From IMG/VR virus record IMGVR_UViG_3300030331_006276: a DNA stretch of 64,000 nucleotides; one strand, given 5' to 3'. Each line of letters opens with the position of its first letter. Positions within the stretch are counted from its first letter, which is position 1. Below, one piece after another: positions 2,043 through 53,633 of this stretch. This stretch comes from a virus. The notes beneath the pieces were generated by a model. It was not told the DNA's origin. It worked only from the letters and a program-made list of their open reading frames with translations, and searched no databases. A program made the position numbers and the translations under genes.

Positions 2043-4421
2043 ATGGGATCTTTAGTAAAATCTAGTCTAAGTGCACTTAGCTCTGCAGAGGCTAGCTTTT
2101 GTCCAATGAATATTGAATTAGATCAATTTCCTAGGACATTTAATGGCGGTTTTAAGATAAATTTCATACAGGCTCTTTCAGGTGCGCAAAGCTTTAAGAA
2201 TTTAAACTATACAAATTTTTATCTTACAGATAATGTACTGTTAGATAGTGTTACTACTTATAATGCGCCAAAAATAAAACCCGATAAATATACAACAACG
2301 TTAAATTTTGGATTTAGTGCTTCTGCTTTTTGCAAATTTAAACAAGCTTCTTTAAGTACGTTTAAAATAGAAAATAAAATTTTTGAAGCTGAAAACTACG
2401 GTACAGCATCAATTGATTCAGTTAGTGGTGATATTTTTGAAATAGAATTGATTGATGATTTTAATTGTAGGGTTGCAACTCGTGTTAATAATATAAGATA
2501 TTTTCTCGTTGTTGAAGATGATAACGAAGCAGGATTTAAAGATACTCGAGATGTTTTATTTGTTTCAGAAAGTCAATTACCTCTTTCAGGATTTAATTTA
2601 AATTACAACTTATGTAAATATACTTCAATAAGTTATCTTAATTTATATTCAACAAAGCAGAAGGGCAGTACGCGTATAGTTTATGCTTTAACTAGTAACG
2701 GTAATAAAGTTGTTGCTACAAAACTTGACCCATCAAAAAATTATAATGAGTTTGTAGTTACAAATTTTAGTATAAGGCTTGATCAAGAATTAAACTTAAC
2801 CATACCATCGCCTTACAATACATCTTATATAACATATAACGAAAGTGGTAAAATAAGAGATACAAAAAGTGATTTTAATTTACCATCAAATTATTTGCTG
2901 TTTAGTTCAAGTGATAATGATAAGCAAGTTTTTGATTTTCTTACTTTAAAGAATATAGTTAATACACAAGATTCTTTTACATCATCAAATAATTTATTAT
3001 CTACTTCTGAAACACCTATATTCGCGCAAAATTTAAGAACATATACGAGTATCTTTACTGATATTGATAGTGAAAAAAATGAAACTTTAGCATTAAATTA
3101 TGTTTATAATAATTATGACTTAGTTATTAAACCTGGAACAACACATTTTACTACGCCTTCGTCTCTTCAACCTTTTGATAAAATTAATATTAATGATACT
3201 AAATTTGCAGATTGTGGATCATTTTCATTTATTGCACCAGATTTATCTGACCGTGTATATAATTTAGATGATGATACCGTACAAAGTGAAGATGTAACTT
3301 ATCTTTGCACTTGGTTATCGGGCGGTATAGGTACTCGTGGAACGTGGGTTGATAGATATTATTATCCTGATTTAGTTTCTAAAGAAACAGCCTTAGGTGG
3401 AGTTGCTTCATTTAATATAACATATGATCAAGCAGTTGAAAACTTAATAATGACTAATTCTAGTCTTAAGAGTTCTGTTACACAAAAATATTATTTTGAT
3501 AAAAGAAGTGATCTTGTTTTTGAGCCATCAAAAAGATACAAGTATGTTAGAATTGCAAAAGAAAATTTTGCTATGAAGACACCTACTAATTTTTGTGATA
3601 TATCAATTATAGATGAAAAAATTAATAATTATTTTTCTTCAATAAATGAAAACGGTGGTTTTGGTTTAGGGTTTACGATACAAAATGATACAGATGATTT
3701 TTATTTAGAATCAGAATTTAATTCAATACACGGTGGTATATATTTTGAAAAGAGTGGTAAAAATTGTAAGTTAATTTATAGACTATTTGATAATAGTACT
3801 GAAGGTATAAGCTTATCAGCAAGAATAGATCAAACTACATATGAATATGCTTTTGAAATAGATTTATTCGAACAAAATAATATCTTTATATCTTTTGATG
3901 CTGTTTTAGGTGAATTTAGATTATATTTAAATTCGAATGAATTATATACATTTGAAATTAATGCTTTTCAAATGTTTACAAAGCGATTGCTTTTTGGAGA
4001 TATTTTTATCTATTATAATGATAATAATAATGTGCAGCAGAATATTGAAATATTGCGTAATGCAGCTAGTGATCCAGAAGATAGAATTGCAATAGATAAT
4101 TTATATCTTTCTTTAGAACCATTAAATGAAAATGAAAGATTAGCATTTTTGTTTAGTACAAATATTAATAATATACAAGATATAACTTTATCACTACCAT
4201 GTGGTCAGAGAAATTTAACAGATAATATTCAATTAGTTAATTCTATTAATACTAATCTTAAACATAAGAGTAATGAAGTGGATATTAATATTAAAAATTT
4301 AAATATATCAGATAAAGATATTCGGGAAGAAGTAAAAAATATAGTTATAACTAATATTAAAAACTCTATACCGGAAACAGCTAATATTAATGAGATTAAA
4401 TTTATAGATTATAAAAAATGA
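2043..4421 (+). CDS. Large virion structural protein (baseplate/tail region), function unknown
   Basis: Long ORF; start moved from TTG 2037 to ATG 2043, which lies 6 nt after TAAATA (2031-2036) like other late genes. Confidence 0.55.
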   Translation: MGSLVKSSLSALSSAEASFCPMNIELDQFPRTFNGGFKINFIQALSGAQSFKNLNYTNFYLTDNVLLDSVTTYNAPKIKPDKYTTTLNFGFSASAFCKFKQASLSTFKIENKIFEAENYGTASIDSVSGDIFEIELIDDFNCRVATRVNNIRYFLVVEDDNEAGFKDTRDVLFVSESQLPLSGFNLNYNLCKYTSISYLNLYSTKQKGSTRIVYALTSNGNKVVATKLDPSKNYNEFVVTNFSIRLDQELNLTIPSPYNTSYITYNESGKIRDTKSDFNLPSNYLLFSSSDNDKQVFDFLTLKNIVNTQDSFTSSNNLLSTSETPIFAQNLRTYTSIFTDIDSEKNETLALNYVYNNYDLVIKPGTTHFTTPSSLQPFDKININDTKFADCGSFSFIAPDLSDRVYNLDDDTVQSEDVTYLCTWLSGGIGTRGTWVDRYYYPDLVSKETALGGVASFNITYDQAVENLIMTNSSLKSSVTQKYYFDKRSDLVFEPSKRYKYVRIAKENFAMKTPTNFCDISIIDEKINNYFSSINENGGFGLGFTIQNDTDDFYLESEFNSIHGGIYFEKSGKNCKLIYRLFDNSTEGISLSARIDQTTYEYAFEIDLFEQNNIFISFDAVLGEFRLYLNSNELYTFEINAFQMFTKRLLFGDIFIYYNDNNNVQQNIEILRNAASDPEDRIAIDNLYLSLEPLNENERLAFLFSTNINNIQDITLSLPCGQRNLTDNIQLVNSINTNLKHKSNEVDINIKNLNISDKDIREEVKNIVITNIKNSIPETANINEIKFIDYKK

Positions 4422-42681: not shown

Positions 42682-42709
42682 ATTATAAATATAAGTATAA
42701 TGGAATCAA
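42682..42709. promoter_or_regulatory. Overlapping divergent early (uvsY) and late (42700) promoters
   Basis: Minus strand TTGATT-N16-TATAAT 6 nt before GTG 42675; plus strand TATAAATA 42684-42691. Confidence 0.7.
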
Positions 42710-43089
42710 GTGGCAAATTTGAACGTATCTTTTTAAAAATGTTAAAAGAAGAGATGACTGCTGGTGCTGGAGGGGCGCTTGGTGGTGGTTCTTCGTATAA
42801 CCCGCCGGGTGATATAAGTTCTGGTGATACATACGCTCCAGGCGACGCTAGATTACCTAAGGCTCTTGGAGCTGTCCAAACGCGTAAAGGTACAGTAAAT
42901 AAAAAGAAGAAAAAGAAAGCAAAAGAAGAAAACGAAGAAAATTTTCCAGAAGAAGATGCAGAAAAGAAGAAGAAAGCTGATAGGTGTAAGCGTAGAGCTG
43001 ATTCTGTTTATGGTAAGAAAACTTCTGCTTACAAATCCGGGGCTATTGTAAGGTGTAGACAAGGAAAAATTTGGAAAAAGAAAAAATGA
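42700..43089 (+). CDS. Late modular basic protein
   Basis: KFERIFLKMLKEE N-terminus; EEDAE then ADRCKRRADSVYGKKTSAYKSGAIVRCR module. Confidence 0.65.
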   Translation: MESSGKFERIFLKMLKEEMTAGAGGALGGGSSYNPPGDISSGDTYAPGDARLPKALGAVQTRKGTVNKKKKKKAKEENEENFPEEDAEKKKKADRCKRRADSVYGKKTSAYKSGAIVRCRQGKIWKKKK

Positions 43090-43690
43090 CCCAGAAAGAG
43101 ATATTAGAAGCTAGCGACTCACTACGTCAATGGTTTAAACGTGGTGGTACTGATCCTAAAACTGGTAAAAAGTTTAAAGGGTGGGTAAATTGTAAGACTG
43201 GTGGTCCTTGTGGTCGTAAATCAAAAAAGTCTGGTGGTAGTTACCCGGCTTGTCGACCAACTAAAGCGGCTTGTAAAAGTATTAAGGGTAAAATGTATAA
43301 AAAGAAGGGTCCAAAGCGTGTTAATTGGAAGAAGAAAAAAACTAAAAGCGAGAATGCTGAAGAACCTAAAAAGGGTACCGGTAAAAAACCTAAAGGTTCA
43401 AGCAGAAGGTTGTATACTGATGAAAATCCAAAAGATACAGTAAGCGTAAAATATAGTACTGTGGGTGATATACGCGAAACGTTAAATAAAGCTTCATTTA
43501 AAAGTAAATCGCATGCCCGACAGTCGCAAATTATTAATTTAATTCATCAAAGAGTAAGAGCTGCTCGTGGTAGAGTAAAAGATCCTAAAAAGAAAAAAAG
43601 TTTAGCTGCCGCTTACAAATATATTACTAATAAAAAAGAAGCTAGTAAGCGTAAGACTAAACGAATGCGTGAAGAAGATGCAGAAAAGAA
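42949..43690 (+). repeat. 20-nt exact direct repeat at module junctions
   Basis: gaagaagatgcagaaaagaa at 42949-42968 and 43671-43690; partial copies at 44046 and 29627. Confidence 0.85.
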
Positions 43691-43841
43691 AAATGTTCAT
43701 AAACCTGTTAAGCCAGGTATACTTAAAAAGCGATTAGGTAATCTGTCTTGTAGTAAAGTAAGAGGTGCTAAAAGTAAGCTTAAGAATAAAGGTACTCATT
43801 ATGCTAAAGCATTACAACGCTATTTAAATTATCATTGTTAA
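43086..43841 (+). CDS. Late modular basic protein (three modules)
   Basis: ATGA-coupled start MTQKEILEA; SLRQWF..C..C..YPACRP module, RRLYTDENPKDT module, KPVKPGILKKRL module. Confidence 0.65.
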   Translation: MTQKEILEASDSLRQWFKRGGTDPKTGKKFKGWVNCKTGGPCGRKSKKSGGSYPACRPTKAACKSIKGKMYKKKGPKRVNWKKKKTKSENAEEPKKGTGKKPKGSSRRLYTDENPKDTVSVKYSTVGDIRETLNKASFKSKSHARQSQIINLIHQRVRAARGRVKDPKKKKSLAAAYKYITNKKEASKRKTKRMREEDAEKKNVHKPVKPGILKKRLGNLSCSKVRGAKSKLKNKGTHYAKALQRYLNYHC

Positions 43842-43853
43842 ATAAATATTAAT

Positions 43854-44324
43854 ATGAAGTCATTTAAATATTATTTTTTTGAAGCTAAAGAAGCTCCTAA
43901 AGGAAAACATTATGATTCAGCTGGTAGATTAAGATCTGGTGACGCTGATGCTGATGGTAGAGGAGGACCTAAGTATAGGTCTGATCCTACGTATAAAAAT
44001 CCTAATGAAAATAATGAAGATGATCTTGAAGATGAAGAAGCACCTGAAGAGGATGCAGAATATAGAGGAAGGAAAGTAAAACTTAACAAACCCATGAGAG
44101 GGGACGTTAAGAAGTTTAAAGTGTACGTTAAGGATCCTAAAACTGGTAATGTAAAGAAAGTAAATTTTGGTCATGGGGGTACTTCTGCTAAAAGAAAAGG
44201 TGAGAAGACTATGAAAATTCGTAAAAATAATCCAAAAGCTCGTAAATCGTTTAGAGCTAGACATAATTGTGATAACCCCGGGCCAAAGACTAAAGCCAGG
44301 TATTGGTCTTGTAGAAAGTGGTAG
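43854..44324 (+). CDS. Late basic protein, conserved marine T4-like family
   Basis: MKSFKYYFFEA start; YRGRKVKLNKP..KKFKVYVK..VNFG..ARKSFRARHNC..ARYWSCRKW. Confidence 0.7.
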   Translation: MKSFKYYFFEAKEAPKGKHYDSAGRLRSGDADADGRGGPKYRSDPTYKNPNENNEDDLEDEEAPEEDAEYRGRKVKLNKPMRGDVKKFKVYVKDPKTGNVKKVNFGHGGTSAKRKGEKTMKIRKNNPKARKSFRARHNCDNPGPKTKARYWSCRKW

Positions 44325-44716
44325 ATTTAGGTCATTGGGAGGGGATTCTAGAAGAAAGTACGGATCTACCTTACGGTTTCATTTATAAGATAACAAATCT
44401 TACTAATGATAAAAAGTATATTGGTAAAAAGCAGTGCCAGTCAATAAGAAAACGTCCACCCTTAAAGGGTAAAAAGAATAAACGTCATGAAAAAATAGAA
44501 ACTGACTGGAAGACCTATACTTCTTCATCAAATGAACTTAACCAACATATAGAAACACTTGGAAAGAATAATTTTAAGTTTGAAATCCTTAGGTGGTGTG
44601 ATTCAAAGTGGGAGTTGAGTTATCATGAAACTAGATTACAATTTGAAAAAGAAGTATTACTAAGAGATGACTACTACAACGGAATTATTAACGTCAGAAT
44701 TGGAAGGCGTAAATGA
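44318..44716 (+). CDS. GIY-YIG nuclease-domain protein
   Basis: GFIYKITN..KKYIGKK..W..Y..SS..F..EIL..E..YYN. Confidence 0.8.
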   Translation: MVDLGHWEGILEESTDLPYGFIYKITNLTNDKKYIGKKQCQSIRKRPPLKGKKNKRHEKIETDWKTYTSSSNELNQHIETLGKNNFKFEILRWCDSKWELSYHETRLQFEKEVLLRDDYYNGIINVRIGRRK

Positions 44717-45161
44717 TACGGTACGTGGTTTTGAGTTTATTAATCTTAATAAATGCTTAGCTAGATCTTTTAATGAATATCTATTGTATATAACTGAAAA
44801 CGAGCTTAAATTAACAAGAAAAGATAAAAACAAGCTTGGTATTCATTTTATTATTAAAGAAATAATTAAAGTTTGTAAGAATACTAATAGTAAAAAATGG
44901 TTTTATTATAAAACAAACGGTAAATCAATAGAACATACACTTGTTAAACGTATTTTTAACGCTATACCCACAAATATTACGTATAGTAAAGATAGCTTTG
45001 AAATATTTTTAGAAGAAAGAGACTACATGTCTTTCCAAAAAAAAGATACTTCAACTATTTCATTTTATAAATTTAGATTATTTCTTCGAAGGTATGAGTT
45101 GCAGCAAATAGAAAAGGAGTTTCTAACTAATATAAATATAAAACTCTCGTTGCTTCCATAA
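44667..45161 (+). CDS. Hypothetical protein
   Basis: 164 aa; start uncertain (50-nt overlap with the upstream gene). Confidence 0.5.
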   Translation: MTTTTELLTSELEGVNDTVRGFEFINLNKCLARSFNEYLLYITENELKLTRKDKNKLGIHFIIKEIIKVCKNTNSKKWFYYKTNGKSIEHTLVKRIFNAIPTNITYSKDSFEIFLEERDYMSFQKKDTSTISFYKFRLFLRRYELQQIEKEFLTNINIKLSLLP

Positions 45162-45169
45162 ATATATAC

Positions 45170-45583
45170 ATGAATAAGTTTCTTAAACTTGTAGAAGAGA
45201 ATCGACCAGGTCAAGACAAGTATACTATTGAGTTAAGAGATTCAAACGGCAAAGTTGTTGATTCTTTTGATATGTTTGGTGTAAGCAGTCCTTTCGATAT
45301 CTTTGATAGCTTTAAACGCGAGTATGCTCCAGATGGTTCAGTAGAAGATCAAGAAGTTGCTATGGGTAGTAATAAACCATATGATGTTGAAAAAGAGGTT
45401 AATAAGTTAGCAAATCAAGCTAAAGGTGGTGTAATGGGTAAGATTGCAGGGGCTATGGGAACAGCACCACAAGAAGCTAAAAAAGCAGTAAAAATGAGAG
45501 CAGACCTTGCAAAAAAAGCTGTAGATCTATATAACCAACAAACAGGTAAGTTATCTAATGCTATAGATGCCGCGAAAGGATAA
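45170..45583 (+). CDS. Late hypothetical protein
   Basis: MNKFLKLVEE start; TAAATA at 45159-45164. Confidence 0.6.
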   Translation: MNKFLKLVEENRPGQDKYTIELRDSNGKVVDSFDMFGVSSPFDIFDSFKREYAPDGSVEDQEVAMGSNKPYDVEKEVNKLANQAKGGVMGKIAGAMGTAPQEAKKAVKMRADLAKKAVDLYNQQTGKLSNAIDAAKG

Positions 45584-45588
45584 AAATC

Positions 45589-45927
45589 ATGAAAAAAACA
45601 ATACAATTATTTGAAAAATATAAAAAGCTCTATTCTGAACAAGAAGAAATAGATGTTAATGTTGATGTTGAAGCAGATGCTACTGATGTAGAAGATATTC
45701 CTCCGGAGCCAACTGGTATTTCACCAGAAGGGGAAGTATTTATTGCAGATTTACTAACTAATGCCTTTATATATGCTCCAAAAATGCAGGATATTAATAT
45801 TGCTGCACAGGTAAACAAACAATTTGGTAGAACGCAGCCTAGAAAAGTTATTGAAACAATTGAAAGATTAATCGAATTTTCAAACGAAGAGGTTGAACAA
45901 GAACTTGAAGACTTAGACGCACAATAA
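45589..45927 (+). CDS. Acidic hypothetical protein
   Basis: 112 aa; MKKTIQLFEKYKKLYSE start. Confidence 0.6.
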   Translation: MKKTIQLFEKYKKLYSEQEEIDVNVDVEADATDVEDIPPEPTGISPEGEVFIADLLTNAFIYAPKMQDINIAAQVNKQFGRTQPRKVIETIERLIEFSNEEVEQELEDLDAQ

Positions 45928-45928
45928 C

Positions 45929-47023
45929 ATGCAGTGGTCATTAGAAGATATCTATAAAAAGCAGGTACGTGGTAATATTCCACCACGCAGACACCTTCGT
46001 GTGCTAGGTGAAGAGGTAGATCTTTATACTAAGCAAAATGATGAATATTCATATGTTGGTCAAGTTTCAGATGAAAATTTTGATAAGATAAGTCGTATCG
46101 CAACAGGAGGAGATGCGTTAGCGTCAATTACCAAGTATTTAGAAGGTAAAAAATATACAAGAAACTCTTTTAAGAACGAATACGACTATGATAGTTTAGT
46201 TGATATGTTAGATAGAGGTGAATTTGAGAAATATATTAGCAGTGAAGAAAAACCGTCACTATCGATTAATGAAACGGGAAATGTTGTACAGTTAGTTACA
46301 AGTAAAGGGTTTAACGAAAAAACAGCAATGAGAACTTCTGCTTTTACTCCTATTGATGAAGGTGGTAGCAATGTTGGACCTTGCGAAATACTTCTCGCTT
46401 TAGCATTCAGCAACGTAACTAATTCAACCGAAGGGGGTGATTTAATGATAGATGGTGAAAAACTTGAAGTTAAAGGCCAAGGCGGTAGATTTGGTCAACA
46501 AGGCGGAAGAGGAGGACCAGCCTTATCTCCATCAACCCTTCTAAAAGGGTTAGAAGCAGATAATGTTAAGGTAGTTGAAAGTGTTGAATCAAATATTATT
46601 GGTGCGTATCGTGCTTTCGAGCAAATTGGAAAAATAGATCTATTTTTATCAAACTTACATGATTTACTTAAAATAGCATATCCGGGAGGTGATGTTGCAA
46701 AGTTTTTTACCAATGATATTAATTATATAGATCCAACATCAAGAAAAAGAGGGGCGCCACAAAGTCAAATTAGAAAACAATTAGCAAAGCTTAATCTACA
46801 GCAATATTCTACAAAGTATGATCTACAAAACATAATATTTGCAAAAGGACCACAACAAAAAAAGCCTACACCGGGTCGTTTAGGTGATTTTGCTTCATTT
46901 ACGGTTAATGACGCTATTAAGGAGGGTGGTTTAATTGATAGAGGTATTTTACGTGCAAATTCTTTTACAATGGCCGGTCTCTATCCAAACTTTTTCTATA
47001 TGTTTTCCAATGAATCTAAATAA
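45929..47023 (+). CDS. PD-(D/E)XK nuclease-like protein, putative
   Basis: GPCEILL..GGDLMIDGEKLEVKG fits an E...D...ExK catalytic pattern. Confidence 0.55.
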   Translation: MQWSLEDIYKKQVRGNIPPRRHLRVLGEEVDLYTKQNDEYSYVGQVSDENFDKISRIATGGDALASITKYLEGKKYTRNSFKNEYDYDSLVDMLDRGEFEKYISSEEKPSLSINETGNVVQLVTSKGFNEKTAMRTSAFTPIDEGGSNVGPCEILLALAFSNVTNSTEGGDLMIDGEKLEVKGQGGRFGQQGGRGGPALSPSTLLKGLEADNVKVVESVESNIIGAYRAFEQIGKIDLFLSNLHDLLKIAYPGGDVAKFFTNDINYIDPTSRKRGAPQSQIRKQLAKLNLQQYSTKYDLQNIIFAKGPQQKKPTPGRLGDFASFTVNDAIKEGGLIDRGILRANSFTMAGLYPNFFYMFSNESK

Positions 47024-47026
47024 ACT

Positions 47027-48238
47027 ATGAAGACTTTTAAGCTATATTTTGAACAATACGAGCTTCTAAATGAAGCTAAAGCTAATACACACCTTACACA
47101 TTTAGAGGAGCTTATTCTTACTAAAGGAGAGGGTGGATATAAGACTGCAAGGGGATTTATAACCGATTTGCTTTCACATTTACAGGGTAAGAGTAAAAGA
47201 AAAGTAAATACATCAGTCAAATGGGATGGTGCACCTGCTATTTTTGCTGGTAAGCATCCAGAAACTGGTAAATTCTTTGTAGGTACTAAATCTATATTCA
47301 ATAGAGAGCCTAAAATTAATTATACAGATAATGACGTTGAGATGAATCATGGTCATGCTCCTGGTTTAGCCGATAAATTAAAGAAAGCTCTTAAGTATCT
47401 TCCTAAGCTGGGTATTAAAGGTATACTTCAAGGTGATTTTATGTTTGATTCATCATCTGTTAACAGAGAGATTATTGATGGTGTGGAGCATTTTACATTT
47501 AAACCCAACACAATTAAGTATGCAGTTGAAAAAGATTCTAAATTGGGTAGAGAAATAGCTAATTCGGTATTTGGTATAGTATTTCATACAGGATATGCTG
47601 ATTTAGATAGCTCCCCACAATATGGTATTAATGTAAAAGGACTTAAAAAAGTTCCAGGAGTGTGGGTTGATGATGCTATATTTACTGATTCAACTGGAAC
47701 AGTTACTCTTACTACTGATGAGGCTAAGCAGGTGAGAGATTATGTAAAGACAGCAGATTCTATTAAAGTAGATTATCGAGATCTACCTCTAGACTTACTA
47801 AACATTTATGCTAACTCTGAAATTCAAAAAGGTCAGTTTTTAGAAGATCCTGAAGTTTCATTTAATAACTTTGTTGATTGGTTCAAAGGTAGAATGACTA
47901 AAGAAATAGAAAAGAGAAAGTCTAAAGCCGGTAAACTTAAGGTAGAAGAAAGCTTTAAAAAGAAAATGGCTGAATTTAATCAACAAAAAGATGATATAGT
48001 AAATATCTTTAAAGTAAGTAAGCTACTTTCTCAAGCCAAACAGATCTTTATTAACAAGTATAATAATGCTGTATATAATACTAAGCATTTCTTAGATGCA
48101 GAAGACGGTACGTTAAAGGTAACATCTCCGGAGGGTTATGTAAGCGTATCTAAAGCTGGTGATGCAGTTAAGTTAGTAGATAGATTAGAATTTAGCCGTG
48201 CTAATTTTAGTGGAGGTCAAACAAGTACAAAAAAATGA
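47027..48238 (+). CDS. Conserved T4-like phage protein (DUF6267-like) with ligase/capping-enzyme motifs
   Basis: SVKWDG (motif I), LQGDFMF (III), PEGYV (IV), VKLVDR (V); MKTFKLYFEQ start; TAAATA 4 nt upstream. Confidence 0.65.
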   Translation: MKTFKLYFEQYELLNEAKANTHLTHLEELILTKGEGGYKTARGFITDLLSHLQGKSKRKVNTSVKWDGAPAIFAGKHPETGKFFVGTKSIFNREPKINYTDNDVEMNHGHAPGLADKLKKALKYLPKLGIKGILQGDFMFDSSSVNREIIDGVEHFTFKPNTIKYAVEKDSKLGREIANSVFGIVFHTGYADLDSSPQYGINVKGLKKVPGVWVDDAIFTDSTGTVTLTTDEAKQVRDYVKTADSIKVDYRDLPLDLLNIYANSEIQKGQFLEDPEVSFNNFVDWFKGRMTKEIEKRKSKAGKLKVEESFKKKMAEFNQQKDDIVNIFKVSKLLSQAKQIFINKYNNAVYNTKHFLDAEDGTLKVTSPEGYVSVSKAGDAVKLVDRLEFSRANFSGGQTSTKK

Positions 48239-48738
48239 AAACATTTAGAGAATATTTTGAAGAAAACAAAGCGATAGATTCCTTAAGAGGATGGGAGCAT
48301 GATGATGCTAGAGATTACGCAATAAAACTTATAAAGAAATTCGGTGAACCAGATGAAGTAACTGAAAATATGTTACTTTGGAATAATATTGAACCGCCTT
48401 TTGAATCAGTTTATATAAAAGATGAAAGTATACCTCATGAGTTTCCTTCCTCCCATAGAGATTATGTTTATTCTACTATGAATATTGATGTACCTGCTGA
48501 AATGTTAGATACATTAGGATATGTTACTGGTAGTATTATATACGACGGTCTTAAAAAAGAAGTTACTGCAAGATGTGGTGACTTATATGCTAATGCAGCT
48601 ACATTAGGTTTTGTAAAAGATATGGTTGATGGTAAGGTTACTACAGATTTTGAAGAGGCAAAAAAAGAATATGCTAATAGAATACAAAAGGCACCTTTAC
48701 CTGATTGGTATCCTAACAGTATGGAAGAAGGAGATTAA
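48235..48738 (+). CDS. Hypothetical protein
   Basis: MKTFREYFEE start; FGEPDEVT..HEFP..H.D..GSI..D..EVTARC..N motif set. Confidence 0.6.
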   Translation: MKTFREYFEENKAIDSLRGWEHDDARDYAIKLIKKFGEPDEVTENMLLWNNIEPPFESVYIKDESIPHEFPSSHRDYVYSTMNIDVPAEMLDTLGYVTGSIIYDGLKKEVTARCGDLYANAATLGFVKDMVDGKVTTDFEEAKKEYANRIQKAPLPDWYPNSMEEGD

Positions 48739-48740
48739 AA

Positions 48741-49280
48741 ATGAGAACCTTTAGAGAATATTTTGAAGATATGGAGACAAGAGTTGAGCGAATCGCTCTT
48801 CTCCCCGGTGGTTTTAAGCCACCTACAAAGGGTCACTTTAATGCTTTAAGATATTTGCTTGATGATGCAGATAAAGGTATTGTTTTTATTGGTGGGAAGG
48901 CACGTGAAGGCATTACACCTGAGCAATCAGAAAAGATATGGAACATATATGCGAAATATTTTGATAAGCCTGTAAAGGTTGTGTATGTACCGAATCCGGT
49001 AAGGGCAGTTTATGACTTTGCTGATGAAAATTTAGACACGACGTTGCTTGTTGGTGCTGGTGAAAAGGATGAAGATGTTAAACGTTACAAATATTTTATA
49101 GATAATGTGGAAAAATATCCATATGTTAATGTAGTTAAAATACCAATGCAAGAAGGTGGTATATCTGGTAGTCAAACAAGAGAAATGATACAAAAAAATA
49201 TAGATGAGTCGTTGGATTATTTTGTACCAGATGAAATATCTATTGAAGATAGAGATCAAATAAAAGCAATATTAGTATAA
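48741..49280 (+). CDS. HIGH-superfamily nucleotidyltransferase (cytidyltransferase-like)
   Basis: PGGFKPPTKGH (HIGH variant), GAGEKD..RY, GISGSQTR; MRTFREYFED start. Confidence 0.8.
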   Translation: MRTFREYFEDMETRVERIALLPGGFKPPTKGHFNALRYLLDDADKGIVFIGGKAREGITPEQSEKIWNIYAKYFDKPVKVVYVPNPVRAVYDFADENLDTTLLVGAGEKDEDVKRYKYFIDNVEKYPYVNVVKIPMQEGGISGSQTREMIQKNIDESLDYFVPDEISIEDRDQIKAILV

Positions 49281-49288
49281 ATAATATT

Positions 49289-49705
49289 ATGAGAGATAAG
49301 AAACGTAAAGAAAGAGCTATGCTTCAGGAAGCATATCAAAAGGTTAACGAAATGTTAGGACCGCATAATAACCCTTATCCTCAAAAAATGGCAGTAGCTG
49401 TTCCTGTACCATCAGAAGATGAAAGCTGTGGAGAGTATGATCAATCTGAAATTGATATGGCAGGTAGGGATCTTCTTAAAGCGCAAGAATATGCTACAAA
49501 ATTAAGTATGATGGTGCCAAAGTTACCTGGTTTGGATGGATGGGTAGCTTCAAAAATTACAAAAGCTGCAGATTATCTCTCATCTGTATTTCATTATCTT
49601 GATTATGAAATGCAACAACATGATGAAGTTGTAGTGGATGTTGAAGAAATACAAGCACCAGTAGAAGTTTTTAATGTAGGGTATGAGGATACAGAAAATA
49701 CTTGA
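49289..49705 (+). CDS. Late hypothetical protein
   Basis: LDGWVASKITKAADYLSSV; TATAAATA at 49276-49283. Confidence 0.6.
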   Translation: MRDKKRKERAMLQEAYQKVNEMLGPHNNPYPQKMAVAVPVPSEDESCGEYDQSEIDMAGRDLLKAQEYATKLSMMVPKLPGLDGWVASKITKAADYLSSVFHYLDYEMQQHDEVVVDVEEIQAPVEVFNVGYEDTENT

Positions 49706-49728
49706 CCACACCGTTAATAGCAGTTGCT

Positions 49729-50178
49729 ATGAAGAAGTTTAAACATTTTTTTATTGAAAAACAAGTTCTTGGACTTATAGAGTTCTTTGACGTAGATGGT
49801 GTTGGTAAAATACCATCTAAACTTGATTCAGGTAACGGTGCTTTTAACGTTATTCATGGAGAGGATATACAAATACAAGGTAATAAAGTTCTCTTTAAAA
49901 CAGTTAACAATAAACATCTTATAAAAGATAAAGTAGATGATATTTCTATTAATGTCGGAGCTGGTAATATAGAAGAAAGACCTGTTGTTAACTTTGATCT
50001 GAAAATTGGTAATAAAGAGTTTAAAGATATACCTTTTTCTGTAGGTAATAGAACTAGTAACTTATTTAAAATATTAGTAAGTAAAGACTTTATAGAAAAA
50101 GAGCTTGATGCTCTTATTGATGTTAGTCGAGAAAATATTGCTGATAAAGAGCTTGATGCTACTTTTAATACCAAGTAG
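49729..50178 (+). CDS. Retropepsin-like (RimK-associated 'ATP-dependent Zn protease'-type) protease
   Basis: SKLDSGNG, ERPVV..L.IG, FSVGNR..ILVSK; start moved to ATG 49729 (MKKFKHFFIE). Confidence 0.7.
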   Translation: MKKFKHFFIEKQVLGLIEFFDVDGVGKIPSKLDSGNGAFNVIHGEDIQIQGNKVLFKTVNNKHLIKDKVDDISINVGAGNIEERPVVNFDLKIGNKEFKDIPFSVGNRTSNLFKILVSKDFIEKELDALIDVSRENIADKELDATFNTK

Positions 50179-50695
50179 GCTTCCAACGTAACGTCCAAGT
50201 AGCAAAATCTTTATCGTGACGAATATACTCTCTGTATTTGTCAATAGTAGATAAATTATCAAAATCTTCTATTTTTCTGCAATCACAATCTTCGCCAATA
50301 GCTACTGCGTAATTAGTTAAGCCAGTTTTACTCATAATAGTATTATGAATATTTTGACCACACCACTCAATAAATGTCTTAGTAAAATGTTCTTTTGATT
50401 CGGGCCACCTATACATACGTTCATTAAACATTTCTAAGGTATGATCAACTAACCATTTAAAGTTATCTTTAGTTTCTCTTGCCCATATAGAACATTGATG
50501 ATTAAAATAACCTTTACCTCTCCTACGAGGTTTACCGGTAGAAGTTCTTGGAGTAGATTTATGATCTAATACTTCTTGAGGAAACGCATGCGCTAGCATA
50601 ATAGCTCCTTCAATTTGCATTTTTGATCTTACATGTTGATCACAGAGGTTATAAGTAGAAATTACAGGATCGTCGTCAGTTACAAATATATTCAT
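50165..50695 (-). CDS. Pyrimidine-dimer glycosylase (DenV/Pyr_excise)-like protein
   Basis: MNIF..D.DP...L.DQHV.KM..E..ML, NHQCSIWAR..NF.WL..EF..R, YREY..K. Confidence 0.75.
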   Translation of the reverse strand: MNIFVTDDDPVISTYNLCDQHVRSKMQIEGAIMLAHAFPQEVLDHKSTPRTSTGKPRRRGKGYFNHQCSIWARETKDNFKWLVDHTLEMFNERMYRWPESKEHFTKTFIEWCGQNIHNTIMSKTGLTNYAVAIGEDCDCRKIEDFDNLSTIDKYREYIRHDKDFATWTLRWKPTWY

Positions 50696-50797: not shown

Positions 50798-51448
50798 TTA
50801 AGTTCCTTTCATATTAGAAACAAATTGATAAAATTCATTCCTAGTAGCAATTTCATCTAAAAAGTCGCTACTTAATCTTGCAGTTTTCATCTCACAACCA
50901 TCATGTTTAACTCCTCTTAAGCAAGCACAAGTATGTGTAGCAGAAATCATTACTGCAACTCCTTTATTACCCTCACAAATCTCATTAATAGCATCATGAA
51001 TTTGCATAGTTAAACCTTCTTGAATTTGAGGTCTTCTAGCAAAATGTTCTACAATACGATTAAGTTTACTTAATCCAATAACTTTACCACTTTTAGAAGG
51101 AATATAAGCTACATGAGCTCTACCAGAGAAAGGTAAGTGATGATGAGAGCATAACGATTTAACAGGTATACCTCCTTGAAATACCATTCCATCATAGCCA
51201 TCAGAAGGAAATGCAGTTACATTAGGTAACTCATCATAACAACCTGCTGCTAAATCTCTTACAAATGACTTAGCTACTCTATTAGGAGTATTGTCACTAT
51301 TAGGATCACTACGCCAGTCGATGCGTAAGGCATCTAAAAATTTTTCATACGCTTTAGCAGCGTCCTCCATAACTTCGAGTTTTTCTTCTTCAGTTAAGGG
51401 CATATTTCCGTTAGCAGTAGGTAATTTAGTAATTTTAGTACGATCCAT
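50798..51448 (-). CDS. folE: GTP cyclohydrolase I
   Basis: TPNRVAK, SLCSHHHLPF.G.AHVAY, GLSKLNR, RRPQIQE.LT, HTCACLRGV. Confidence 0.95.
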   Translation of the reverse strand: MDRTKITKLPTANGNMPLTEEEKLEVMEDAAKAYEKFLDALRIDWRSDPNSDNTPNRVAKSFVRDLAAGCYDELPNVTAFPSDGYDGMVFQGGIPVKSLCSHHHLPFSGRAHVAYIPSKSGKVIGLSKLNRIVEHFARRPQIQEGLTMQIHDAINEICEGNKGVAVMISATHTCACLRGVKHDGCEMKTARLSSDFLDEIATRNEFYQFVSNMKGT

Positions 51449-52937: not shown

Positions 52938-53633
52938 ATGATTTATACGTCTTCAAAAAGAATTGAACTTGGATCAACTGCTTTTCGTCAACCTAATGCT
53001 GACTCGCATTGCAAGTTTATACATGGATATCAGCTTAATGCAGAAATAACTTTCGGTTGTAGTAAGTTAGATGACAATAATTGGGTTTATGATTTTGGTG
53101 GTTTAAAAGAACTTAAAGATATTTTTAATAATCAATTTGATCATACATTAGTAATTGCAGGTAATGATATTCATAGAGATAAATTTATTGCTCTAAATGA
53201 AGTAGGAGCTGCAGATGTTAGAATTATGGAAGGTGGTGTTGGTATTGAAAAGTTTGCTGAGTGGGTATTTAAAACAGCTGATACATATATTGATGAAGTT
53301 ACTGAAGGTCGGGTATGGGTAGAAAATGTTACTGTATATGAACATGGTAATAATTCGGCTTCATGTTCAAGACCTGTTAAGGAAAGTAATTTACATAAGG
53401 ATGAAGAAGGTAAAGCGACTTACGTATCTCATGAAGAGTTTGAAAGATCTTGGAAAGAGTGGTCAGAAAAAGGTAAGATTCCAGTTGTAGAGGAACAAGA
53501 ACCGGTAGTTACAACTACAGTTCCCCCTGTAGAGGAACCTCCAGCAGATAATCCTAGAGCAGCAAATGTTGGTCCTGCAGAAAAGACTAATAATTTTAGT
53601 AACCCGTTTAAAGGTACTTCTTGGGGTGCTTAA
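52938..53633 (+). CDS. queD: 6-carboxy-5,6,7,8-tetrahydropterin synthase with C-terminal extension
   Basis: HCKFIHGY, DFGGLK, FDH, EKFA, VYEH. Confidence 0.88.
   Translation: MIYTSSKRIELGSTAFRQPNADSHCKFIHGYQLNAEITFGCSKLDDNNWVYDFGGLKELKDIFNNQFDHTLVIAGNDIHRDKFIALNEVGAADVRIMEGGVGIEKFAEWVFKTADTYIDEVTEGRVWVENVTVYEHGNNSASCSRPVKESNLHKDEEGKATYVSHEEFERSWKEWSEKGKIPVVEEQEPVVTTTVPPVEEPPADNPRAANVGPAEKTNNFSNPFKGTSWGA

Follow-up and report, generated by a model that had tools for sequence, protein, structure and literature searches.

A predicted RNA ligase-like nucleotidyltransferase, DUF6267, paired with a HIGH-family adenylyltransferase in a cassette of a T4-like phage

The combination of a ligase with a P-loop kinase is the classic arrangement for end healing and sealing, as in Trl1 and Pnkp. 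Here, we analyzed a stretch of 64,000 nucleotides (IMG/VR record IMGVR_UViG_3300030331_006276, hereafter the window) from a T4-like myophage with a G+C content of ~31%, in which a gene for a 403-amino-acid (aa) protein of the family DUF6267 (47027-48238; window features are on the plus strand unless stated) is followed two genes on by a gene for a 179-aa adenylyltransferase with a HIGH motif (48741-49280). In cyanophages, the gene clusters T4-GC 71 and T4-GC 190 correspond to these DUF6267 and HIGH genes. Phage T4 carries a capsid-targeting sequence (CTS), MKTYQEFIAE (PMC8442874), which is removed once inside the prohead (PMC8442874, PMC3012670). The T4 ligase gp30 is among the core genes of non-cyanophages, and marine T4-like phages are without it (PMC5349666, PMC2993671). 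On balance, we favor the view that the 403-aa protein is a lysyl-nucleoside monophosphate (NMP) transferase nearest to RNA ligases and without an OB domain, that it works as a unit with the HIGH enzyme, and that it is probably delivered by the capsid.

The 403-aa protein matched Pfam DUF6267 (PF19782) over residues 20-395 (E 2.9e-96; 323.5 bits, with the cut-off at 27). When 71 DUF6267 homologues with identities of 33-88% were aligned, K65, D67, G68, K88, P160, Y165, G183, H187, E369, G370, and K382 were invariant in 71 of 71 sequences, and Q135, G136, D137, V384, D385, and R386 were conserved in at least 90%. An initial annotation, made from the sequence alone, had recognized four motifs in the order of the ligase and capping enzyme superfamily, and all four were located as claimed, with invariant key residues. 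Motif I, KWDG (residues 65-68; 47219-47230), contains the presumed nucleotidyl acceptor K65; motif III, QGDFMF (residues 135-140; QGD at 47429-47437), has Asp (D137) as its acidic residue and not the commoner Glu; and motifs IV and V, EGYV (residues 369-372) and VKLVDR (residues 381-386), together span 48131-48184. In motif V, the invariant K382 aligns with K240 of Rnl1, V384 takes the second position of the KxK pattern, and D385 and R386 are conserved. The catalytic residues were retained even in the short 331-aa DUF6267 form of P-RSM4, at ~27% identity.

A structural model of the DUF6267 protein was obtained with AlphaFold2 on the 71-sequence alignment, with a predicted local distance difference test score (pLDDT) of 91.1 and a predicted template modeling score of 0.86. 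The model starts with a floppy leader (residues 1-17) and helices at the N-terminus, after which come a beta-rich core (residues 61-216), a five-helix insertion (residues 230-346; 47714-48064), and closing strands that bear EG and the motif V lysine; one helix (residues 386-395) ends it. Motif I lies in the modeled loop joining strands 61-65 and 71-76. The insertion, modeled as helices 230-245, 255-267, 275-296, 300-319, and 321-346, follows the core strands and precedes motifs IV-V, and it is not present in the matched ligases, whose aligned lengths were 172-203 residues. No OB-fold domain or motif VI was found anywhere in the 403 residues, and the model stops ~20 residues past motif V.

In an unbiased structure search, each of the top 19 matches was a ligase or a capping enzyme, and RNA ligases led the ranking; all 50 re-aligned Foldseek candidates likewise belonged to these two kinds of enzyme. 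NgrRnl scored 8.4 (185 residues, root-mean-square deviation 3.9), followed by Trl1 (7.9), archaeal Rnl3 (7.7), T4 Rnl1 (7.4), T4 Rnl2 (7.3), and REL1 (6.3); DNA ligases scored 5-6.3 and capping enzymes ~5. In BFVD, the first named match outside the DUF6267 family was an RNA ligase (E 4e-3), and a shape search of the ESM-Atlas returned the family itself only. The initial annotation had seen no separate OB-fold tail, which it took as closer to RNA ligases, and had named beforehand a fold unlike that of ligases as what would overturn it; the fold obtained was ligase-like, ended shortly after motif V, and ranked RNA ligases first. As judged from this model, DUF6267 belongs to the covalent nucleotidyltransferase superfamily and is most like the RNA ligases. 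It is a divergent, OB-less member that lies outside every named ligase family by detectable match, and it departs from them by the helical insertion, by the replacement of the second motif V lysine with valine, and by a conserved N-x-H-L-x-H-L-E sequence before motif I.

Sequence comparisons gave a sparser picture. Searches of PDB sequences with the single sequence and with the 71-sequence profile yielded low-complexity and coiled-coil noise only. PF09511 was touched by 2 of the 71 DUF6267 members (E 6e-4) and was not matched by the window protein, which by sequence or profile is not within the T4 Rnl1 family. In hhalign comparisons with T4 Rnl1 and with a 26-sequence Rnl1-family alignment, residues 365-384 of DUF6267 were placed on residues 223-242 of Rnl1 (E 0.025-0.043), so that E369/G370 paired with E227/G228 and K382 with K240, in an Rnl1 stretch that holds K240/K242. 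Only motifs IV-V were aligned with Rnl1, and nothing was found with T4 Rnl2.

The model of the 179-aa HIGH protein had a pLDDT of 89. Foldseek returned PPAT (1gn8, E 2e-6) and also NaMNAT, NMNAT, and NadM with a probability of 1.0 and template modeling scores of 0.6-0.7; the four enzymes scored alike (E 2e-6 to 7e-5). The best PDB sequence match was PPAT 4f3r (E 0.0016). The window protein has no Pfam match of its own, and PF01467 was matched by the fused and long homologues. Two signatures are conserved in the family, namely GGFKPPTKGH, a nucleotide-binding motif of the (T/H)xGH type (residues 23-32; 48807-48836), and ISGSQTR, of the ISxSxxR type (residues 141-147; 49161-49181). G23, P27, G31, and H32 were invariant in the alignment of HIGH homologues, the G..F.PP..GH pattern was kept in the 37 family seeds, and S142 and R147 were conserved in 34 and 35 of these 37, respectively. 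Some homologues carry GRFQPFHKGH, an archaeal-NMNAT-like signature. The partner is a HIGH adenylyltransferase of the PPAT/NMNAT class, and the class is clear.

The linkage of the two genes was surveyed in 82 loci (80 viral loci encoding DUF6267, plus HTVC008M and S-8S53), on which a HIGH-domain profile was run. A HIGH gene was present in 47 of the 82 loci, invariably on the same strand and either downstream or fused, and in 32 of the 45 loci that extend 4 kb or more downstream; any other window gene recurred in at most seven loci. The co-occurrence that the initial annotation had put forward as a check thus bore out its pairing with a HIGH enzyme two genes on, which is the dominant conserved neighbor and a recurrent fusion partner. 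Fusions of DUF6267 and HIGH in a single open reading frame (ORF) were found in six loci, in both domain orders, and also in many database proteins. The two genes are arranged together in the pelagiphage HTVC008M and in S-8S53, P-RSM4, S-SZBM1, and DLP6; the last, a soil Stenotrophomonas phage, also has the order DUF6267-small gene-HIGH. The small gene of the window (48235-48738) encodes a 167-aa protein with the same leader as its neighbors; it had no family match in Pfam or PHROG, and homologues were found in just 4 of the 82 loci. A complex prediction for DUF6267 and HIGH gave a score of 0.00, which, being without controls, speaks neither for nor against binding.

In the S-PM2 reference record (NC_006820, locus L086 3947-5726), a frameshift splits a DUF6267-HIGH fusion: p141 ends out of frame, and in the annotated 'cytidyltransferase' p142, the N-terminal part is in fact the C-terminal half of DUF6267. 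An unbroken S-PM2 fusion of 591 aa is present in BFVD. At 3790-3870 of this locus, a tRNA-like stretch (…GGAGTTCGACTCTCCC…) was observed in the 185-nucleotide gap just 5' of the DUF6267 gene.

A third enzyme accompanies the pair in some phages. In HTVC008M, a zeta/AAA_33-type P-loop kinase is encoded as its own gene between DUF6267 and HIGH, and such a kinase is fused to HIGH in several loci and to DUF6267 in P0252; none was found within the window. In a different explanation, the pair would act on small molecules and synthesize or reconstitute a cofactor such as nicotinamide adenine dinucleotide (NAD+) or dephospho-CoA, against NAD+-depleting defenses or to prime host metabolism, with DUF6267 as an unusual adenylate-forming enzyme. 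By structure, the HIGH enzyme cannot be told apart from PPAT and NMNAT, the archaeal-NMNAT-like signature occurs on some of its homologues, and its fusions with P-loop kinases are reminiscent of NadR and CoA synthase; an NMNAT-like metabolic role has been proposed for the virion-associated cytidyltransferase by the authors of PMC10665884. However, the kinase belongs to the AAA_33/zeta type, as in polynucleotide kinases, and not to the NadR RNK type, and Pfam and PHROG scans of the cassette showed no Nampt-like partner. Moreover, we know of no member of the covalent nucleotidyltransferase superfamily that uses a small-molecule acceptor. We consider this explanation quite improbable.

The HIGH domain also occurs in giant single ORFs of 680-1873 aa (L032 2141-7759; L019 5537-8671; L050, L053, L067, and L069), in which it comes first and is followed by a zeta/AAA_33 kinase, SET, HNH, RimK ATP-grasp plus a retropepsin-like 'Zn_protease' domain, DUF5824, or DUF6321. 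These ORFs look like cargo polyproteins. It is conceivable on this basis that DUF6267 is a noncatalytic capsid cargo or scaffold that retains a ligase-like fold, and that the fusions represent co-packaging in protease-processed polyproteins; the mixture of HIGH with SET, HNH, RimK, retropepsin-like, kinase, and DUF domains is in keeping with this, as are the leader-like linkers that sit ahead of the DUF6267 domain inside fusions. However, the residues for nucleotidyl transfer are invariant down to ~27-33% identity, a pattern not seen in relics, and the DUF6267-HIGH link is far commoner than every other pairing. A noncatalytic role therefore seems to us very unlikely indeed.

A catalytic pair delivered by the capsid is consistent with the leaders of the cassette. 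Five ORFs, encoding the DUF6267, 167-aa, and HIGH proteins and the proteins at 49729 and 43854, have M-[KR]-[TSK]-F-[KR]-x-[YF]-F at the N-terminus (MKTFKLYFEQ, MKTFREYFEE, MRTFREYFED, MKKFKHFFIE, and MKSFKYYFFE), and no other match to this pattern was found in the six frames of the window, in agreement with the common leader that had been noticed on DUF6267 and HIGH. The DUF6267 leader, MKTFKLYFEQ... (47027-47077), resembles the T4 CTS and corresponds to residues 1-17, which have low pLDDT. Many DUF6267 homologues carry similar leaders (MKSFKQILKE, MISFKQFLKE, and alike) ahead of the first conserved motif, and leader-like sequences are retained as linkers within DUF6267 fusions. A late-promoter-like motif, CTAAATAA (47016-47023), precedes the DUF6267 gene, whose start codon lies 4 nucleotides on. 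ATAAATA late-promoter-like motifs were found directly 5' of ORFs 42700, 43854, 45170, 47027, 49289, and 51492, and also 5' of the S-PM2 and S-8S53 modules.

Published virion proteomes provide a further view of packaging. Both were obtained by mass spectrometry. In S-SZBM1, the cytidylyltransferase SSZBM1_140 and its neighbor _139 were detected (PMC9146016); _141, which adjoins _140 and is DUF6267, is absent from the proteome table of that study. In S-CREM2, gp154 (cytidylyltransferase), gp155, gp156, and gp160 were detected (PMC10665884), and DUF6267, which is encoded elsewhere in the genome than gp154, is not in the proteome list. The authors of the virion proteomes caution about possible carry-over. 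The virion-detected HIGH proteins of S-SZBM1 and S-CREM2 start with MRFRQFIIEA and MKNFSSFLTE, and the undetected S-SZBM1 DUF6267 starts at the conserved motif without a leader. That the leader decides packaging fits the two virion proteomes (n = 2 phages), and if it does, the window DUF6267, which bears a leader, would be packaged. By analogy with these phages, the window DUF6267 and HIGH proteins are probably packaged and delivered by the capsid in this lineage. The virion delivery proposed in the initial annotation thus has indirect support: the leaders are T4-CTS-like and leader-bearing HIGH homologues occur in two proteomes. The DUF6267 proteins of both phages are unlisted, and for the window proteins packaging is an inference.

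DUF6267 is common among marine phages. Its homologues form 2,377 representative clusters (50% identity, E up to 0.001), and it matches 453 phage records, cyanomyophages for the most part. Almost every T4-like cyanophage sequenced has both DUF6267 and its 'cytidyltransferase' neighbor, which are also present in myophages of SAR11 and Methylophilales and in metagenomic clusters numbering in the thousands; most ocean T4-like phages carry DUF6267. Because the marine T4-like phages that lack gp30 possess DUF6267, it could be their ligase, namely a 'missing' DNA ligase of replication or recombination that seals Okazaki fragments and recombination nicks, and not an injected or RNA-repair enzyme. Besides the predominance of cyanomyophages among the 453 records, HTVC008M, S-8S53, S-SZBM1, S-CREM2, and S-PM2 all have DUF6267 and lack PF01068 (HTVC008M and S-8S53 lack PF01653, PF09414, and PF09511 as well), T4 shows the reverse with gp30 present and DUF6267 absent, and the DUF6267 gene usually lies 1-3 kb downstream of the gp41 helicase and UvsX. 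We nevertheless judge this role to be unlikely. Phage DLP6 has a PF01068 ligase plus the full DUF6267-small gene-HIGH module, and the simple reading of DUF6267 as a gp30 replacement was downgraded because DLP6 has both genes. The OB-less fold resembles RNA ligases more than DNA ligases, the late-promoter-like motifs and CTS-like leaders of the window and of many homologues point away from a role in the replisome, and the S-CREM2 DUF6267 gene is placed among tail-fiber genes. A DNA ligase would also leave the fixed partnership with a HIGH adenylyltransferase unexplained.

Several observations weigh against an RNA ligase-like enzyme that is coupled to a HIGH partner and expressed late. The second motif V lysine (KxK) is replaced by valine, the profile comparison with the Rnl1 family was not significant beyond 21 columns (E 0.025), and Foldseek of the DUF6267 model against the PDB gave nothing significant (best E 0.097), although ligases had the top probabilities. 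With regard to the pairing, no HIGH gene is nearby in 13 of the 45 loci that extend far enough downstream, and the DUF6267 and HIGH genes of S-CREM2 are 65 kb apart. HIGH domains are fused also to the unrelated SET, HNH, RimK, DUF5824, and DUF6321 modules, so that part of the fusions may stem from joint delivery as polyproteins and not from a common chemistry. Finally, TATAAATA-type motifs showed no overall enrichment in the window (13 seen versus 20.9 expected); since their total does not exceed chance, only their placement is suggestive.

Taking these points together with what the analysis does show, namely the modeled fold, the conservation of the catalytic residues, the linkage and fusion of the two genes, and the leaders on their products, we find that DUF6267 and HIGH are most likely a late-expressed pair for polynucleotide end joining or nucleotidylation that is probably packaged, as far as sequences and models can indicate. 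Given the persistent link and fusion of the two, they are probably a nucleotide-transfer or break-repair pair, perhaps capsid-delivered. We infer covalent catalysis on a nucleic acid substrate, in which K65 of KWDG would attack the alpha-phosphate of either a nucleoside triphosphate (NTP) or a dinucleotide that contains ADP, yielding an enzyme-NMP intermediate, with D137, E369, and K382 holding the ribose, metal, and phosphate. The NMP would then be transferred to a 5'-phosphate polynucleotide end, and the end would be sealed. The helical insertion of ~115 residues probably substitutes for the absent OB or C-terminal substrate-binding domain.

In the proposed division of labor, DUF6267 would act as a unit with the PPAT/NMNAT-class HIGH enzyme two genes downstream, joined in some phages by a P-loop kinase (AAA_33/zeta type); with the HIGH partner and the occasional kinase, the unit looks like a kit for end healing and sealing or for nucleotidylation. 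The HIGH enzyme may make or regenerate the adenylyl donor (e.g., NAD+ from nicotinamide mononucleotide and ATP), or it may adenylylate a phosphate-bearing substrate of the DUF6267 pathway. RNA repair, the rebuilding of a cofactor, and protein nucleotidylation had been put forward in the initial annotation as possible roles. As both window genes stand behind late-promoter-like motifs and encode T4-CTS-like leaders, both proteins would probably enter the prohead, be trimmed, and be injected alongside the DNA. A bolder proposal, which we regard as doubtful, is that DUF6267 represents a ligase family of its own whose chemistry is coupled to that of HIGH, either through pre-adenylylation of 5'-phosphate ends by HIGH or through its local regeneration of NAD+ for a ligase that uses it, and that the two make up a capsid-delivered break-repair kit, sometimes with a kinase.

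The plus-strand cassette that holds the pair extends over 42700-50178, in the orientation opposite to gp41; homologues of gp43, gp46/47, and gp41 are encoded on the minus strand of the window, with folE and queD nearby. Directly 5' of DUF6267 is a 364-aa gene (45929-47023) that is possibly restriction endonuclease-like, which is a lead only: its nearest named ESM-Atlas clusters were the SmaI, HinP1I, and Eco47II endonucleases, at only 0.77-0.78, and it had no match in Pfam or PHROG. The slot upstream of DUF6267 in HTVC008M and the cyanophages holds different, apparently unrelated genes; homology between these and the 364-aa gene was considered and dropped, as jackhmmer made no link. A 156-aa protein (43854-44324) with the related leader MKSFKYYFFE matched phrog_7595 (E 2.4e-14), and jackhmmer showed that its C-terminal module is common to a neighbor in the HTVC008M cassette (L001 9122-9523). 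This small module, which ends in …RKSFRARHNCD…YWSC..W, is present in eight loci. A 149-aa protein (49729-50178) with the leader MKKFKHFFIE has a weak similarity to the retropepsin-like Zn_protease family (PF05618, E 7.5e-5, under the curated cut-off); a PF05618 domain is also found C-terminal to RimK in the L019 polyprotein.

Within the cassette, an ORF at 44318-44716 resembles homing endonucleases of the GIY-YIG type. Its best PHROG, phrog_447, bears the label 'NAD synthetase', which looks mislabeled because homing-endonuclease PHROGs match this ORF too. The cassette is flanked by homologues of GTP cyclohydrolase I (50798-51448, minus strand) and QueD (52938-53633, plus strand), which fit a 7-deazaguanine DNA-modification pathway in the window phage, as suggested by sequence. 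The ORF at 50165-50695 was considered as an endonuclease V-like glycosylase and dropped, as it had no Pfam match.

The placement of DUF6267 in the ligase superfamily provides a testable biochemical handle, namely the K65 adduct and end joining, for a gene that, like its 'cytidyltransferase' neighbor, continues to be annotated as either hypothetical or metabolic. It also touches on the long-standing puzzle of marine T4-like phages without a recognizable ligase and suggests that the capsids of these phages carry enzymes besides inhibitors. If the break-repair kit is real, it would mend the injected genome or host or phage RNA in the first minutes of infection, and it would belong to some of the ocean's most abundant viruses. 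If the ligase-fold and HIGH enzymes share one pathway, they would represent a new two-enzyme logic for nucleotidyl transfer. In the literature searched, no mention of 'DUF6267' or 'cytitidyltransferase' and no recognition of a ligase fold in T4-GC 71 were found.

In DUF6267, as in the ATP-dependent RNA ligases (NgrRnl/Rnl5, PDB 5cot; T4 Rnl1, PF09511; the ligase domain of fungal Trl1; T4 Rnl2), KxDG is followed by the acidic residue of motif III, then by EG, and then by the motif V lysine. The motif IV Glu and the motif V Lys have the Rnl1 spacing of 13; an OB domain is lacking, as it is from Rnl1 and Trl1; and a P-loop kinase is sometimes fused, as in Trl1 and bacterial Pnkp. However, DUF6267 has no significant sequence or profile match to these ligases (hhalign E 0.025, 21 columns), and it differs from them in the helical insertion of ~115 residues that separates motifs III/IIIa from motif IV, in the valine that replaces the second lysine of motif V, in its HIGH adenylyltransferase partner, and in a conserved N-terminal N-x-H-L-x-H-L-E (H22, H25, and E27), which to our knowledge has not been described in ligases. 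It differs from T4 gp30 and the other ATP-dependent DNA ligases (PF01068) in lacking the OB domain and motif VI; its structural match to them is weaker than that to RNA ligases, and both kinds of protein coexist in DLP6.

The HIGH partner shares the Rossmann-like fold, (T/H)xGH, and ISxSxxR with PPAT (CoaD) and the NMNAT/NaMNAT enzymes (NadD, NadM, and NadR), and its homologues, like NadR and CoA synthase, are fused to P-loop kinases. It is unlike PPAT and NMNAT in its CTS-like leader and its link to a ligase-fold enzyme; we know of no cellular PPAT or NMNAT with either feature. As with T4 IPI-III and Alt, a ten-residue leader close to MKTYQEFIAE and ending in hydrophobic-x-E is borne by several unrelated proteins of a late cassette, and leader-bearing HIGH homologues occur in cyanophage virions. 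In contrast to those T4 proteins, the cargo here would be nucleotide-handling enzymes rather than small basic inhibitors or an ADP-ribosyltransferase. Cyanophage T4-GC 71 and the 'cytitidyltransferase' T4-GC 190 are the same two families and are adjacent in S-PM2, P-RSM4, S-8S53, and S-SZBM1; in public records, GC 71 is labeled hypothetical and GC 190 a cytidylyltransferase or metabolic gene.

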